The notes beneath the pieces are model-generated. The model had not been told where the DNA came from. It did no database searches and saw nothing but the letters and a program-made list of their open reading frames with translations. From assembly GCA_951406725.2 (NCBI GenBank), contig OX597827.1, forward strand, positions 24,552,001 to 24,616,000: a stretch of DNA of 64,000 nucleotides. Direction: 5' to 3'. Both the position numbers and the translations under genes were made by a program. This stretch comes from Octopus vulgaris. Taxonomy: Eukaryota. Within the stretch, counting starts at the first letter, position 1; each line of letters opens with the position of its first letter. Below are positions 9,063-49,001 of this stretch, piece after piece.

Positions 9063-9295
9063 CAGGGTTGGCTAGAAGTCACCTGGTAGTAAATCAAAAC
9101 CATTTAATTCCAAGATTTATTTCTGTTTAACAGCTGAATGTATTTAATAAAAGCAAATAAATGTGAAACATTATGAAAACTGTTCAAACTGAAGTCCTTC
9201 TTGAGCAACACATTTTCCCATTCAAGTCTATTCAGGATTACAGACAGTCTTTATGGAATTTTGATTTACTGTCGGGTGACTTTTGGCCAACCCTG
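9063..9295. mobile_element. Tc1/mariner-type MITE
   Basis: TIRs CAGGGTTGGCTAGAAGTCACCTGGTAGTAAATCAAAA and TTTTGATTTACTGTCGGGTGACTTTTGGCCAACCCTG, flanked by TA. Confidence 0.8.
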
Positions 9296-9334
9296 TATAT
9301 ATATATAGGGAGAGAGAGAGAGAGAGATACATAA

Positions 9335-9395
<61 letters not shown>

Positions 9396-9497
9396 ATATA
9401 TACATAAATACATATATATATATATATGTATATATATATATGTATATGTATATGTATATATATATATATATGTATACATATATATATATATGTATAC

Positions 9498-9569
<72 letters not shown>

Positions 9570-9581
9570 TTATGTATATAT

Positions 9582-9626
<45 letters not shown>

Positions 9627-9731
9627 TTATGTATCTCTCTCTCTCTCTCCCTATATATATATACAGGGTTGGCCAAAAGTCACCCGACAGTAAATCAAAA
9701 TTCCATAAAGACTGTCTGTAATCCTGAATAG
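9228..9731. repeat. ~500-bp palindrome (inverted duplication of the MITE right end plus flanking microsatellite)
   Basis: 9228-9297 is the exact reverse complement of 9662-9731; the GA/TC tract and the interruptions in the TA run are mirrored too. Confidence 0.9.
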
Positions 9732-9760
9732 AGCTTGGCAGGTCTCTCTCTCTATATATA

Positions 9761-11052
9761 TTGGGTTGGCAACTAAGTTTCTTAAAATTTGTTTTAAGAG
9801 TTTTAAAATTTTAAAAGTTTTAAAAAATTTTGGAATCTATTTTCTTTGAGAATTCTATATTTGAATCATTTTGGAATCTATTTTGTTTTTTTACTAGTTA
9901 ATTTTAGTTAATTTTTGTTTATTTTCAGATCATTAAAATGGAATGTCAAGTTAAGAAAAACAAGTGTTTTCGACACCTCCTCCTTTTTGTTTTTAATCAA
10001 GGTTCTAAGGCTGCAAAAGCTGTTCACGACATTTGTGCTGTGTATGGAGAGGTTACCATAGCTGAAAGAAACGCTCGTGATTGGTATGCCAAGTTCAAAA
10101 ATGGAAATTTTGACCTCAATGACGCACCTCGTTCAGGCCGTCCAGATGAGTTTGATGAAGAGCGATTAAACCAACTTTTGCACGAAAATTCTCGTCAAAC
10201 GACAAGGGAACTGGCAGAGAAAATGGAATGTTCCCACACTGCTATAGAGAAGCATCTTCACTCGATGGGAAAGGTTCAGAAGTATGGTGCATGGGTTCCG
10301 CATGCTTTAAGTGACAACAACAAAAATCAACGAGCCACAATCTCCGCTGGTTCGCTTGCTCGTCACCGCTCAACTCATGGACACAAGCAGCGATTTCTTT
10401 GCCGAATCGTTACTGGCGACAAAAAATGGTGCCTGTACATCAATATGAAGCAACGTAAAGAATGGCTTACCCCGTAAACAAGCGATACTACGCGTGAAAC
10501 AAGATCTTCATCCGCGTAAAATGACGTTGTGCGTATGGTAGGACAGGGAAGGGATTATCCATTACGAATTGCTTGAACGAAACCAAACGGTCAACACGGA
10601 ACTCTACGTTCAACAGTGGAACGATTCAACATGGAAGAGAAAAGACCTAATTGGCAGCATGGAGTTCTTCTGCTGCACGACAACGCCCGCCCTCAAATCG
10701 CTAAAATGACCAAGGAAGCCATTCAAGCACATGGTTGGGAAGTGCTGCCACACCCGCCAAACTCTCCTGATTTGGCACCAACGGATTTACACCTCTTTTG
10801 ATCCCTTTCAAATGCTATGCGGTGTTCCGTTCAATACTGATGCAGAATTGAGGGCTCGGTTGGATCAATTTTTCGATTCGAAATCGGGTGATTTCTACAA
10901 ATGAGGTATTGAAAATCTTGTTGAATGTTGGGAAGAAGTTGTAAACAACAAGGGTGAATACATTAATGATTAATTAGTTGTTATTTTTTATTAAACCTTT
11001 TAAAAAATTTAAATTTAAAAAAAAAACGGTGGGAACTTAGTTGCCAACCCAA
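9761..11052 (+). mobile_element. Full-length mariner (DD34D) element, transposase disrupted
   Basis: TIRs TTGGGTTGGCAACTAAGTT and AACTTAGTTGCCAACCCAA with TA flanks; 1.29 kb. Confidence 0.95.
9938..10973 (+). pseudogene. Mariner transposase (resembles the capitata/mellifera groups)
   Basis: Motifs RSGRP, WVPHAL, IVTGDKKW, HDNARP, PNSPDLAPTD, GEYIND*; stops and frameshifts after 10477. Confidence 0.9.
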
Positions 11053-11157
11053 TATATATATATATATGAAATAATTAAGATTCAGTTGGATTAGGTATTT
11101 AAGTTGAAGCACCAAGTGAGTCTGGTATTATCCGCACAAATCAAAGTAGGTGAATAA

Positions 11158-11450
11158 AATCAAAATAAGCAACAGGATATCAAGTAGTAATGCAGTATGA
11201 TCGTTTCAAGTGGTTCCTTTTAATTGAACAATGCAATCAATTACATCAATTTAAATGCATTGCTATCTTCAGATGCACAAAATATAGAATTCTTTTAACA
11301 AGTAGGATACATTAATATATTCTATATTTTTTGCAGCTGAAGATAGCACTGCATTTAAATTGATGAAATGATTGCATTGTTCAATTAAATGGAGTTGCTT
11401 GAATTGGTTGTACTGCATTACTACTTGATATCCTGTTGCTTATTTTGATT
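11158..11450. mobile_element. Inverted-repeat element (arms 11158-11290 and 11319-11450) carrying one hammerhead motif per arm; PLE pLTR-like
   Basis: Arms are diverged reverse complements; consensus TGCAG-CTGAAGA-(~58 nt)-GAAAC-GATC-GTA-CTGCA at 11191-11277(-) and 11332-11417(+); TA-flanked. Confidence 0.65.
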
Positions 11451-12377
11451 ATATATATATATATATGTAAATATGTATGTTTTGTTTTTGTATCTGGTTT
11501 GCTAGATACCTTATGTGAATTCATGTTGCATCTGGGGAAGAGTGTGTAATATTAATGCACTATGAGTCTCTCCCATCATTTGAGCGTGGCCATTGCCAGT
11601 GCCACCTGACTGATTCCTGTGTCAGTGACATATAAAAAGCACCATTTAAATGTGGTCAATGCCAGTACCACCTGGCTAGCCCTCGTGCCGGTGGCACATA
11701 AAAAGCACCCACTACACTCTCAGAGTGGCGAGTGTTAGGAAGGTCATCTGGCTGTAGAAACTTTACCAGATCAGATTGGAGACTGGTGCAGCCTCCTGGC
11801 TCACCAGATCTCTGTCAAACTGCCCAGACATTACACAACAATGATGACGGTGGTATATATATATATTTACGTGCGTGTGTTTGTTTGTGTTTGTTCCCTG
11901 TGACTGCTTGATAGCCAGCTTTGGTGTGTTTATGTCTCTGTAACTTAGCAGTCTGGCAAAAGAAATCAATAAAGTAAGTTCTAGGCTTAAAAAATATATA
12001 ACTAGGGTCACTCCATTCAGCTAAACATTCTTCAAGGTGGTATGCCCCAGTATGGTCGCAGTCTAATGACTGAAACAAGTAAAAGATAAAGGATGGATAA
12101 ATAACAACAATAAAAAGCAAACAACAACAACAGGAACCAAAGAATCTGCTTTGAGAACGAATATGTTGGAGAGAACGATGAGAAGTTTAGTGAATTGTCA
12201 GGAGGACTTATTAAGAATTGCCAATTGAAGAATTAGAAGGGTGTAAAATGGGGTGATGGAATATTAGGGTGGAATTTAAACCAGTAGAATGGGAGTACAG
12301 TCGCTAATGAAAGATTATATGGGTGTGTTTGTGTATTTATGTATGTGTTGTGTGAGTTATGTCCCCCTCCCCCTCGC

Positions 12378-18577: not shown

Positions 18578-18590
18578 TATATATATATAT

Positions 18591-18849
18591 ATTATTTACA
18601 TTTGATGGTTTATTTGTTCTCATCTTGTTTGTTGTTAACACAACGTTTCGGCTGATGCACCCTACAGCTTTCATCAGGTGTCTTGGGGAAATTTCGAACC
18701 TGGGTTCTCATTCTTAAGGTATTTTTCAAATGAGAACCCAGGTTCAAAATTTCCTAAAGACACCTGATGAAGGCTGGAGGGTATATCAGCCGAAATATTG
18801 TGTTAACAACAAATAAGATGACAATAAATATCCATCAAATGTAAATAAT
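18591..18849. mobile_element. Inverted-repeat element (~120-bp arms) with two hammerhead motifs; PLE pLTR-like
   Basis: Arms 18591-18711 and 18730-18849; GACAC-CTGATGA-A(A/G)GCTG..TCAGCC-GAAAC-GTT-GTGTT at 18637-18682(-) and a GAAAT-ATT variant at 18759-18804(+). Confidence 0.8.
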
Positions 18850-19399
18850 GTACATAATTCCTCATCTCTTAAATATAGAACTGTAATAAACACACACACA
18901 CACACACATATATATGTACATACATATATATATAAGCAGTTAATACCAAAATACTAAGAAGGAAAATTTTGCAGTGCACACAAAATTGCAGCAGAAACAT
19001 ATGTTGGTGTAGAGGTAGAAAGACATGATTGACAGCAGAATAAAACTGGATAAATCTCTGTTCTCCTTATTAATTATTTATTACACACACACACACACGC
19101 ACGCACGCGTGTGTGTGTGTGTGCGTTTGTGTCAGTGTATGTCCCCCACCACTGCTTGACAATCGAAGTTGGTGTGTTTACATCCCCGTAACTTAGCAGT
19201 TCAGTTAAAGTGACCAACAGGATAAGTACCAGGTTTTAAAAAAAAACCCCAGAAAATACAAGTTCTGGGGTCAATTCATTCGACTATAAATTCTTTAAGG
19301 TGGTGCCCAAGTATGGCCACAGTCTATTAACTGAAAGGAGCGAAAGATAAAAGATGAAAAAAAAACATATAATGGTAATTCCCAAGACATATTTCACAC

Positions 19400-21547: not shown

Positions 21548-23951
<2,404 letters not shown>

Positions 23952-24127: not shown

Positions 24128-24486
24128 GCGGCAAAGTAATTTATTTTACTAAGCCCTTTTATATAATGTAATAATTTGAATTCGCCTTAAATGGTCCCTT
24201 TGCATACTGAACACTTGGTGAAATTGATTAATAATTAATTAATTTTACCCTCAATTGTTGAAATTATAATTAATCTCCCTCTAATTAATGCTTCGGATTT
24301 TACCGAAATAAGCATAGTGTTTGATGATTTTAACCCACGCTGGTGGAAAGGGGAGAACAGAAATTCTTCGCTTGCTTATTTGAGTTTGTTGGCACTGTTA
24401 GTTACGAGCAGATCTTCGAAAGCGATGAGAAGCCGAAAGGGTATGTTCTTACTTTCAGTGTTTCCAAATCCAAACCAAGGAGTTTC

Positions 24487-24538
24487 TGAGCTGATGATAG
24501 AAGTGTCGTTTTGACTAATCTTGAAACGTACGTTCTCA
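24487..24538 (+). ncRNA. Minimal type I hammerhead motif (unit 1)
   Basis: TGAG-CTGATGA-TAGAAGTGTCGTTTTGACTAATCTT-GAAAC-GTAC-GTT-CTCA; CUGAUGA and GAAA boxes intact. Confidence 0.75.
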
Positions 24539-25048
24539 AATAACCTTAGCATTTGATTTTTTGATGTCCTTACCCCCAAACTTTTGTGAGTTGAATTAAG
24601 CAAACACTATATATGAGAGAGATTTTCTTTAAGTATTAGAAATAGCTTTAAAAAAGTTTTCTAGCTGCTATTTCTAATGAGTTCAGTATGCGGCAAAGTA
24701 ATTTATTTTACTAAGCCCTTTTATATAATGTAATAATTTGAATTCGCCTTAAATGGTCCCTTTGCATACTGAACACTTGGTGAAATTGATTAATAATTAA
24801 TTAATTTTACCCTCAATTGTTGAAATTATAATTAATCTCCCTCTAATTAATGCTTCGGATTTTACCGAAATAAGCATAGTGTTTGATGATTTTAACCCAC
24901 GCTGGTGGAAAGGGGAGAACAGAAATTCTTCGCTTGCTTATTTGAGTTTGTTGGCACTGTTAGTTACGAGCAGATCTTCGAAAGCGATGAGAAGCCGAAA
25001 GGGTATGTTCTTACTTTCAGTGTTTCCAAATCCAAACCAAGGAGTTTC

Positions 25049-25100
25049 TGAGCTGATGATAGAAGTGTCGTTTTGACTAATCTTGAAACGTACGTTCTCA
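25049..25100 (+). ncRNA. Minimal type I hammerhead motif (unit 2)
   Basis: Identical to 24487-24538, offset by 562 bp. Confidence 0.75.
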
Positions 25101-25290
25101 AATAACCTTAGCATTTGATTTTTTGATGTCCTTACCCCCAAACTTTTGTGAGTTGAATTAAGCAAACACTATATATGAGAGAGATTTTCTTTAAGTATTA
25201 GAAATAGCTTTAAAAAAGTTTTCTAGCTGCTATTTCTAATGAGTTCAGTATGCGGCAAAGTAATTTATTTTACTAAGCCCTTTTATATAA

Positions 25291-27011: not shown

Positions 27012-27342
27012 ATTGCAGCATAGAAGGTTGTTATAAACCATTTAAAAACACACAAAAACCGTTAGATTCATTTCAATACTTAAATTTAATCGGTGTCAAA
27101 ATATTTTCGTTGCTTTGAGACCGTGACCTGTTCACTGATAAAATTCCGTGCTGCATCTGAGAAAGACTTTCTGAGATGCAGTACGGATTTCCCAGATGTA
27201 GCATAAAATTTTGTCAGTGAACAAGTCGCAGTCTCAAAGCGATGAAGATATTTTGACACAAATTAAATTTAAATGTTGAAGTGAATCTAACGGTTTTTTT
27301 GTGTGTTTTTAAATGGTTTATAAACACCTTCCATGCTGCAAT
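27012..27342. mobile_element. Inverted-repeat element (~150-bp arms) with hammerhead-like fold and non-canonical core
   Basis: ATTGCAGCATAGAAGG.. and ..CCTTCCATGCTGCAAT arms; consensus TGTCA-GTGAACA(G/A)-GTCGC..GCGAC-GAAA-ATAT-TT-TGACA. Confidence 0.6.
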
Positions 27343-37921: not shown

Positions 37922-38066
37922 ATTATTTACATTATTTACATTTGACGGATATTTGTCCTCATCTTGTTTGTGCTAACATGTTTCAGCTGATATACCCTCC
38001 AGCCTTCATCAGGTGTCTTGAGGAAATTTCGAACCTGGGTTCTCATTCCTAAGGTATTTTTCGATG
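37922..38066 (-). mobile_element. Single-arm copy of the 18.6-kb hammerhead element
   Basis: Minus strand GACAC-CTGATGA-AGGCTGGAGGGTATATCAGCT-GAAAC at ~37975-38017; stem III/I 3' side damaged. Confidence 0.7.
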
Positions 38067-38086
38067 TTATTATTATTATTAATATC

Positions 38087-47104: not shown

Positions 47105-48223
<1,119 letters not shown>

Positions 48224-48268
48224 ATCGAGCAGTTACTGTCTATATCTCTTTTAGAGAATTATTATTGC

Positions 48269-48310
<42 letters not shown>

Positions 48311-48315
48311 AATAA

Positions 48316-48780
48316 ATAATTTACAAGATAAGGGCAAAAGAAAAATTCTAATGCCAAATATGCCTAAACAAAAATTGTCAATAACCATTATAATTTATGT
48401 GTCTCGAAACAAACCGATAGAAATTTCTAAAAATTCATTATTACCGTATTGGTCCAATTTCGGAGTTAATTCATAAGAATTTTCTCCTCTTCAGCAGCAA
48501 ATACGCGAGATATTGGGGTACTTAGGTCTGCTCAGGACTTAGTGCTTGCTTTTTCCATGGGTATGAGTAAGTATTTCACTTATATCTCGCGTATTTGCTG
48601 CTGAAGAGGAGAAAATTCTTATGAATTAACTACGAAATTGGACCAATACGGTAATAACGAATTTTTTAGAAATTTCTATCGGTTTGTTTCGAGACACATA
48701 AATTATAATGGTTATTGACAATTTTTGTTTAGGCATATTTGACATTAGAATTTTTCTTTTGCCCTTATCTTGTAAATTAT
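48316..48780. mobile_element. Young inverted-repeat element (~198-bp arms, 68-bp spacer) with two hammerhead motifs
   Basis: Arms 48316-48513 and 48582-48780; TATTTGCTG-CTGAAGA-GGAG..CTCC-GAAA-TTGGACCAA-TA-CGGTAATA at 48439-48503(-) and 48592-48656(+). Confidence 0.85.
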
Positions 48781-48862
48781 ATATAAATTTAACCTTTAAA
48801 GGTATTTTTTGATATGCTGGCCATTGATGAAATTTTTTTCCCGAAAAAAATTTTATCCTACA

Positions 48863-48907
<45 letters not shown>

Positions 48908-48915
48908 GGTGTCAA

Positions 48916-49001
48916 TACATTACGGCTGTTTCAAGCAACACCTTTAAGTGATTAATGAAAACATTACATCATTTGAAATGAACCGTTCTCATCAGAACAT
49001 A
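48916..49001 (-). ncRNA. Type I hammerhead motif related to the 11.2-kb family
   Basis: Minus strand TATGTT-CTGATGA-(~56 nt containing CATTTCAAATGATGTAAT)-GAAAC-AGCC-GTA-ATGTA. Confidence 0.55.

Follow-up and report, generated by a model that had tools for sequence, protein, structure and literature searches.

According to the Fig. 2 legend of PMC8557442, Penelope-like element (PLE) insertions are 5'-truncated, often come with an inverted 5'-truncated copy, and carry a tail of 30-40 bp at one end. In PMC3846280, the head-to-head order is the usual arrangement, the tail lies on one inverted pLTR, and self-priming is suggested. The protein of an anole PLE nicks and extends both target strands and prefers AT-rich DNA; it starts at two internal RNA sites that bound the tail, and uncut RNA is its main template (PMC11167929). 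Hydra-clade PLEs, as given in the supplement of PMC8557442, insert into (TA)n; stem III of their hammerheads is a palindrome with a single central nucleotide, the base at the cut is often A or U, and one member of the clade, Penelope-13_HM, has a ribozyme on both strands through its inverted 5' copy. Pairs of hammerheads on opposite strands, 100-700 bp apart, occur in Schistosoma near truncated PLEs, and metazoan type I motifs cofold as dimers through stem III (PMC4209133). PLEs have been recently active in Octopus vulgaris, where 31 families are described (PMC13282606).

We analyzed a stretch of 64,000 bases of the Octopus vulgaris genome (the window; positions are counted from its first base). 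An earlier note on this DNA had described a young, inverted pair of hammerheads at 48316-48780 and had proposed a PLE-type insertion with an inverted partial copy. Our analysis supports that proposal, through two 3' ends, a one-sided tail and truncated copies set head to head. At the locus, two 5'-truncated copies face each other head to head in (TA)n; both derive from the 3' end of one high-copy family, the part that bears the hammerhead. The locus is very probably the product of a single insertion by a PLE RT and GIY-YIG. This reading starts from direct observations, namely the anatomy of the locus, two 3' ends of the family, inversion points that vary among copies, and three rare letters shared by the two arms. 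The whole insertion spans 48312-48865 (554 bases) and is asymmetric. Its features are as follows.

48267-48311, no strand: (TA)n target tract on the left (from the sequence, left flank of the foldback alignment).
48312-48513, minus strand: left arm, the inverted 5'-truncated copy, whose 3' end is the short end of the family (equivalent to 48784/5).
48436-48505, minus strand: left type I hammerhead, core and stem II intact, with C3 at 48494 and the predicted cut between 48447 and 48446.
48514-48581, plus strand: 68-bp spacer, by which the longer (+) copy exceeds the other at its 5' side (from contigs joining spacer to arm).
48582-48784, plus strand: right arm of the inverted pair (from local alignment).
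48590-48659, plus strand: right type I hammerhead, with C3 at 48601, the predicted cut after 48648, and stem II pair 10.2-11.2 broken.
48785-48865, plus strand: one-sided 3' extension ("tail") of about 80 bp, which stops at the long end of the family (from contigs bridging arm and tail).
48866-48904, no strand: (TA)n target tract on the right (from the sequence).

The earlier note had given arms of about 198 bp with few mismatches and a 68-bp spacer. Local realignment of the two arms yields 198 identities, 4 mismatches and 1 gap, and the spacer is exactly 68 bp. The previously given extent holds for the inner arms; the insertion itself is longer, and the extension on the right had been missed. 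The left arm stops at the short family end, and only the right arm bears the extension. No further copy of the arm was found in the 64-kb window among the BLAST matches listed.

Each arm carries one type I hammerhead, and both point outward from the centre. The motifs first reported for them were all confirmed, and GAAA was found in addition: CTGAAGA, ATTGG-A-CCAAT and the triplet AUA are in both arms, with the core CUGANGA/GAAA/UH in order, and stem II reads GGAG..CTCC with an inner hairpin AATTC-TTAT-GAATT, the right arm having CTAC. Helix I, which is open, has 6 pairs beside the core, a 2x2 internal loop and 3 further pairs. Helix II has 4 pairs (3 of 4 in the right arm), beyond which lie an internal loop and a 5-bp hairpin. 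Helix III forms 4 pairs and a 3-nt loop in the monomer and 10 pairs between two molecules. The U at 1.7 and the A just 5' of the helix II 3' strand stand where loops 1 and 2 of natural hammerheads touch, and are candidate contact sites. A strict descriptor (6-bp helix I, 4-bp helix II, 3-bp helix III) found one site in the window, in the left arm, and none in 200 order-2 Markov simulations of the window. At gathering score, Rfam gave no match in the window; the 30 matches at E<=10 within 47800-49000 include no hammerhead family, so that the assignment rests on the core and helices. Matches to Rfam miRNA families were set aside as hairpins without family identity. An exact 23-nt pattern had no match in metagenome contigs.

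With endonuclease-bearing PLEs (PMC8557442, Fig. 2; PMC3846280), the locus shares the type I hammerhead in the terminal repeat, the head-to-head inverted 5'-truncated copy, the tail at one end, and a microsatellite target without a clear target-site duplication; any such duplication here is indistinguishable from (TA)n on either flank. The variable inversion points described below are a further PLE trait. In contrast to those elements, the octopus insertion consists of two ends without an ORF between them, its tail is about 80 bp rather than the published 30-40 bp, and the parent ORF was not found. A Pfam scan of 150 window ORFs (148 of the 370 passing a complexity filter, longest first, plus 2 added) detected no PLE RT or GIY-YIG domain. 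The search for the arm attached to a PLE ORF, proposed in the earlier note, is thereby covered for those ORFs of the window and, in other copies, for the part from 48515 on.

By hammerhead design and target, the closest PLE clade would be Hydra. Families of this clade (Penelope-13_HM, Hydra-1_Obim; PMC8557442 supplement) likewise have a (TA)n target and a palindromic stem III with a 1-nt centre. Their listed hammerheads lie 100-200 nt from the 3' end, and in the octopus family C3 is 184 nt from the short end; Penelope-13_HM also has the hammerhead on both strands. Unlike them, the octopus family has no unpaired base between A9 and stem II and has an extra 5-bp hairpin in loop II. The clade is defined by RT phylogeny and an EN without the CCHH motif. 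Identity with Hydra-1_Obim was considered and rejected, as its sequence, including the hammerhead, differs. Compared with the dual hammerheads of Schistosoma PLEs (PMC4209133), the octopus pair is similar in lying on opposite strands about 100 bp apart with a dimer-type stem III; the Schistosoma motifs are minimal, whereas the octopus ones are canonical, with a 6-bp helix I, a 4-bp helix II and a 4-bp monomer stem III. Opposite-strand hammerhead pairs have thus already been published, and only the family and its 80-bp tail are new here. We found no published description of this repeat family, but Repbase, Dfam and the repeat library of PMC13282606 were outside the search and may catalogue it.

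Public sequencing runs provide other copies of the family. Part of the stretch is present in 20 of the 24 runs listed, under four organism codes. Four runs were mapped to 48515-48866, which covers the spacer, right arm and right flank: X1, X4, X6 and X10, with 4,630, 2,337, 1,336 and 138 contigs, respectively. None of the runs is on record as RNA; X10 is guessed to be RNA, and the others are DNA-type. All 30 of 30 bins are covered in each run. Summed depth is not taken as copy number, and contigs give no strand, transcript start or expression level. Six contigs bridge spacer and arm, with at least 31 letters per side, and eight bridge the arm and the 80 bases to its right, among the 32 pieces listed (8,470 more exist). 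Because contigs bridge both to the arm, the spacer and the right "flank" are parts of the element; and because the family ends match on both sides as well, the insertion is 48312-48865. Foreign DNA as the origin of the spacer is ruled out, spacer-arm bridges being seen in all four runs.

Contigs come loose from the family at two places and run into (TA)n. Among the matches listed, this happens at 48785 in 19 contigs of X4, 14 of X6, 4 of X10 and none of X1, and at 48865 in 54 contigs of X1, 35 of X4, 24 of X6 and 3 of X10 (433 further loose-end rows lie beyond these matches). The family has two alternative 3' ends, 48785 and 48865, both in (TA)n, and the left arm terminates within 1 base of the independent end at 48785. 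The joints listed number eight: four between opposite strands, three skips, and one head-to-tail return. Those between opposite strands are 48565/48692 (X1 and X4), 48606/48775, 48612/48649 and 48649/48797, each in one contig per run. Inversion points vary among copies, with no uniform size or fixed internal layout.

These data bear on the possibility that the locus is a DNA MITE, for example a Tc1/mariner derivative with a TA target, whose long TIRs contain a hammerhead-like motif by chance. Such an element would account for long, near-perfect inverted arms, the lack of coding capacity and the TA flanks, and there are mariner/Tc1 remnants in the window. However, the right terminus of the element lies 80 bp past the mirrored part, which means that it has no TIR at both termini, and there are two alternative 3' ends. 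The fixed layout of a MITE is likewise absent, and a target-site duplication, another hallmark that the earlier note had set against its own reading, would be hidden in (TA)n. In other copies, spacer and arm run on collinearly, the joint of the 48312-48865 locus is not recurrent among the joints listed, and the hammerhead is complete, with variation that preserves its stems. That the inversion points differ between copies also argues against a MITE. Contig evidence has already largely refuted this explanation, and we consider it very improbable.

The head-to-tail return bears on a narrower question within the PLE reading, which is whether the family is the end of an autonomous PLE or a non-autonomous unit, that is, a non-LTR retrozyme of about 330-350 nt, possibly with a circular RNA, mobilized by a PLE in trans. 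Metazoan non-LTR retrozymes (PMC7229834; 10.64898/2026.07.22.740005) resemble the octopus family in having a canonical type I hammerhead and a short, non-coding, AT-rich, high-copy unit, and 10.64898/2026.07.22.740005 argues that retrozymes descend from PLE pLTRs. The canonical architecture, with a 6-bp helix I and a 4-bp helix II, is of the retrozyme type (PMC7229834; PMC4209133), no ORF was found in the AT-rich unit, and one X4 contig returns from 48837 to 48515 (back 323). This return is nevertheless the only head-to-tail joint listed among 8,441 contigs, and it comes without the letters in between; partial head-to-tail tandems, which form the pLTRs, are a trait of PLEs as well. Retrozymes have abundant circular RNA and form head-to-tail repeats of 170-400 nt, each with a hammerhead, whereas the copy at 48312-48865 is inverted and not tandem. 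Moreover, autonomous Hydra-clade PLEs carry canonical hammerheads too (PMC8557442 supplement). We regard a retrozyme as a tentative option, possible but not the favored form of the PLE reading.

In no contig among the matches listed does the inversion joint of the 48312-48865 locus appear, and palindromes are a known class of artefact, so that an assembly or library fold-back might be suspected. Against this, the arms are not identical (4 mismatches and 1 gap), each has private changes, and the asymmetry of the insertion matches biological family ends in independent runs. An artefact is in our judgment extremely improbable.

Sequence variation within the family was evaluated from 40 rows at 36 places (5 rows more exist). 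No listed variant falls on the 12 strict core letters, and N7 (48605) is the only core position that varies among the variants listed. The earlier note had named an unconserved core as grounds for abandoning its reading, and this is not what the variants show. The absence of core variants is by itself not significant (P about 0.27), and we rejected it as proof of selection. Seven of the nine single-letter variants in stems I and II preserve standard pairing without a second change, and the remaining two need a listed partner: A-U to G-C at 48610/48631 and G-C to A-U at 48608/48633. These compensatory pairs are deduced from frequencies, which are 62% and 61% in X1 but less alike in X4 (43% and 71%), and the contigs do not give phase. 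The change C>T at 48633, at 37% in X1, turns G10.1-C11.1 into a weaker G-U. Because it weakens a conserved pair and lies in a CpG, part of the stem variation is likely to be decay. The CTAC of the right arm reads as private decay, because the A at 48632 is private and the family has C in more than 99% of summed depth (91,534 of 91,589 in X1).

At three positions, the two arms agree with each other but not with the family majority: T at 48599, A at 48696 and A at 48731. In the DNA-type runs, another letter makes up 99%, 78-98% and 94-96% of summed depth, respectively. Three changes are private to the right arm and one to the left, and most family contigs differ from the arms far more than the arms differ from each other. 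Because these three rare letters are common to both, the arms, judged by their letters, come from one source lineage. The same closeness would follow if a single PLE-type copy had been duplicated in inverted orientation at a later time, through template switching during replication or repair in the (TA)n-rich region, independently of the insertion, and a second near-perfect palindrome, at 47889-48223, adjoins the locus. A random duplication is unlikely to have stopped within 1 base of family end 48785, as the left arm does, and other repeat families in the window share the outward-pointing layout. We find this explanation quite improbable.

Over 203 aligned columns, the arms differ 5 times. 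If a JC distance of 0.09 corresponds to 25 My, as in PMC13282606, this amounts to roughly 3-4 My per arm; the estimate is coarse, and gene conversion would lower it. The original description of the pair as young is plausible on this scale, unless the arms have been homogenized.

A PLE insertion could have produced the locus as follows. The PLE endonuclease would nick (TA)n, and one cDNA would begin at the distal start site, 48865, and run to 48514. For the second arm, either the opposite strand of the target would prime synthesis at the proximal start site, or the first cDNA would snap back and be copied; in both cases, the arm would stop at the short end, 48784. The two 5'-truncated ends would then be joined, and the 68 bases by which one copy exceeds the other would become the spacer. 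Two-strand priming and snap-back alike predict arms that point outward and differ in their 3' ends. At least 66 bases 5' of the cut site are retained in both arms, so that the RNA used as template had likely not been cut, or had been religated. The ribozyme likely serves tandem or multimeric transcripts of the source element, cutting as a dimer via the palindromic stem III, and at 48312-48865 it is a likely passenger; only a transcript started in the spacer would expose the left ribozyme.

Motifs in the same region suggest a 5' UTR intron that holds the ribozyme, with an ORF start in the tail (48567-48865): a donor-like GTAAGT in the spacer at 48567, an acceptor-like AG at 48800-48801, and an ATG at 48814, within the tail, that opens 17 codons reaching the element end. 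In PLEs, pLTR plus tail take in the first codons of the ORF, and the 5' UTR has an intron. Upstream ATGs are out of frame for the candidate intron 48567-48801, and no spliced joint for it was among the joints listed from contigs of the four runs. Protein relatives of the tail ORF start were absent among 869 and 131 candidates and from a representative library, and it had no Pfam match and no counterpart in the available supplement of PMC8557442. These blank searches are weak because the query had only about 25 informative residues. A sigma-70 scan of the spacer found nothing, and that model is irrelevant to an animal.

Folding models were used to evaluate what transcripts of the locus might do. 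The hammerhead fold of the left arm has -11.0 kcal/mol against an MFE of -14.2 (a gap of 3.2), and that of the right arm lies 1.9 kcal/mol above the MFE. With family-majority letters, the distance falls to about 1 kcal/mol and the helix I probability rises from about 0.1 to 0.4, while that of helix III remains near 0.05. Through the palindrome of stem III, two copies cofold, in agreement with the earlier remark that it suits dimer pairing. No dimer can form in cis between the two arms, because their ribozymes sit on opposite strands. For transcripts of the full insertion, the predicted structure is a long hairpin (-340 and -328 kcal/mol), and in both directions all 22 of 22 hammerhead pair probabilities are 0.00. 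A minus-strand transcript starting at 48700 has its hammerhead locked too, and one starting at the spacer keeps stem II but loses helix I in the model. The expectation that read-through gives dsRNA of about 200 bp is therefore borne out, in the predicted fold only, but the model does not support the accompanying claim that transcription from either strand meets a ribozyme, because the sense ribozyme is predicted to be fully paired within the long stem. As a substrate of ADAR or Dicer, such dsRNA would be a candidate. Read-through RNA is predicted to sequester both ribozymes in a hairpin of about 200 bp rather than to cut. Because the arms point outward, the antisense arm precedes the sense ribozyme in such RNA and, being made first, would favor the lock during transcription.

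Near-perfect hairpins of this length resemble the Harbinger palindromes of Xenopus, which are self-contained ADAR substrates (PMC5625713) and likewise fold on themselves over about 200 bp. The Harbinger consensus is itself palindromic, whereas the octopus palindrome is likely made anew with each insertion. The octopus has an exceptionally high share of near-perfect dsRNA loci (4.4e-3, repeats not annotated), and a lizard Penelope is heavily edited (PMC5625713). As a speculation that we consider unlikely, Penelope-built head-to-head stumps could be the octopus's main self-contained source of near-perfect dsRNA, comparable to primate Alu pairs and the frog palindromes, and could explain much of its A-to-I hyper-editing; unwinding by ADAR would then free the hammerhead and make cleavage dependent on editing. 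Our literature search found no published work that ties octopus hyper-editing to PLE foldbacks. The kinds of change in X10 (11 A>G and 6 T>C) are like those in X6 (11 and 6) and X4 (10 and 5) and give no editing signal, X10 being only guessed to be RNA and having 138 contigs. As a separate observation, A>G at 48557 makes up 10% of summed depth (6 contigs) in X10 versus less than 1% in the other three runs, and might reflect editing, an allelic difference or a subfamily.

Simple repeats, (TA)n among them, are abundant in the window. Pfam domains in the 150 ORFs are only of Tc1/mariner and LINE type, and there is no clear host exon. The best named relative of the LINE ORF at 21798-23015 is from Argonauta hians (63%). 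With simple repeats masked, the window contains five foldbacks, 270-470 bp in length, whose arms are separated by spacers of 4-68 bp. They cover 1,713 of 64,000 bases (2.7%), which is no estimate for the genome because the window was picked for such a feature. Among the other four, two have an outward CTGANGA in both arms, one has GTGAACA in both, and one has no core; because other foldbacks show it, the outward layout is common in the window.

Directly to the left of the 48312 insertion, 47889-48223 is a GC-rich palindrome with 164 matches, no mismatches, 3 gaps and a 4-bp spacer. It has a one-sided extension of about 45 bp (48224-48269) and (TA)n on both sides, lacks the CTGANGA core, and is possibly a very young PLE-type foldback of another family. 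The foldback at 27012-27342 (133 matches, 20 mismatches, 23-bp spacer) has GTGAACA in place of CTGANGA in both arms, after which come a stem II, GAAA or GAAG, then ATAT, and a stem I that closes the motif. By its letters, it is a candidate natural hammerhead in which C3-G8 is swapped to G3-C8. At 18584-18856, outward minimal hammerheads (CTGATGA at 18677 on the minus and 18764 on the plus strand) surround a 16-bp spacer, with a short one-sided extension; a single, non-inverted copy of this family lies near 37930-38070 (at 38012, minus strand). The foldback at 11154-11454 has outward CTGAAGA at 11272 (minus) and 11337 (plus), a very long insert (about 60 nt) in stem II, and a spacer of 28 bp.

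Other arrangements are present as well. At about 24191-25290, a pair of 562-bp units stands head to tail, each with a hammerhead (CTGATGA at 24491 and 25053, palindromic stem III), and ends in (TA)n; this could be a pLTR tandem or a retrozyme-like dimer, whose two ribozymes could pair in cis. Inverted arms of about 88 bp at 9223-9737 enclose a palindromic, (TA)n-rich core of about 340 bp, and a mariner remnant (9908-10477) adjoins. A different repeat, at 2113 (minus) and 27541 (plus), has a CTGATGA half core and a T-rich run, with a TA-rich repeat at its end.

As a locus, 48312-48865 is a routine transposon stump of an ordinary kind. As an insertion, it is a clean natural record of PLE integration, with two 3' ends, both strands and an uncut template, in agreement with what the anole element does in vitro. 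Of wider relevance is the density: one 64-kb window has five foldbacks, of different families and with spacers under 70 bp. MITE finders would likely misfile such foldbacks. Were they transcribed widely, they would amount to a large, unannotated reservoir of substrates for ADAR and small-RNA pathways in a lineage that edits heavily.
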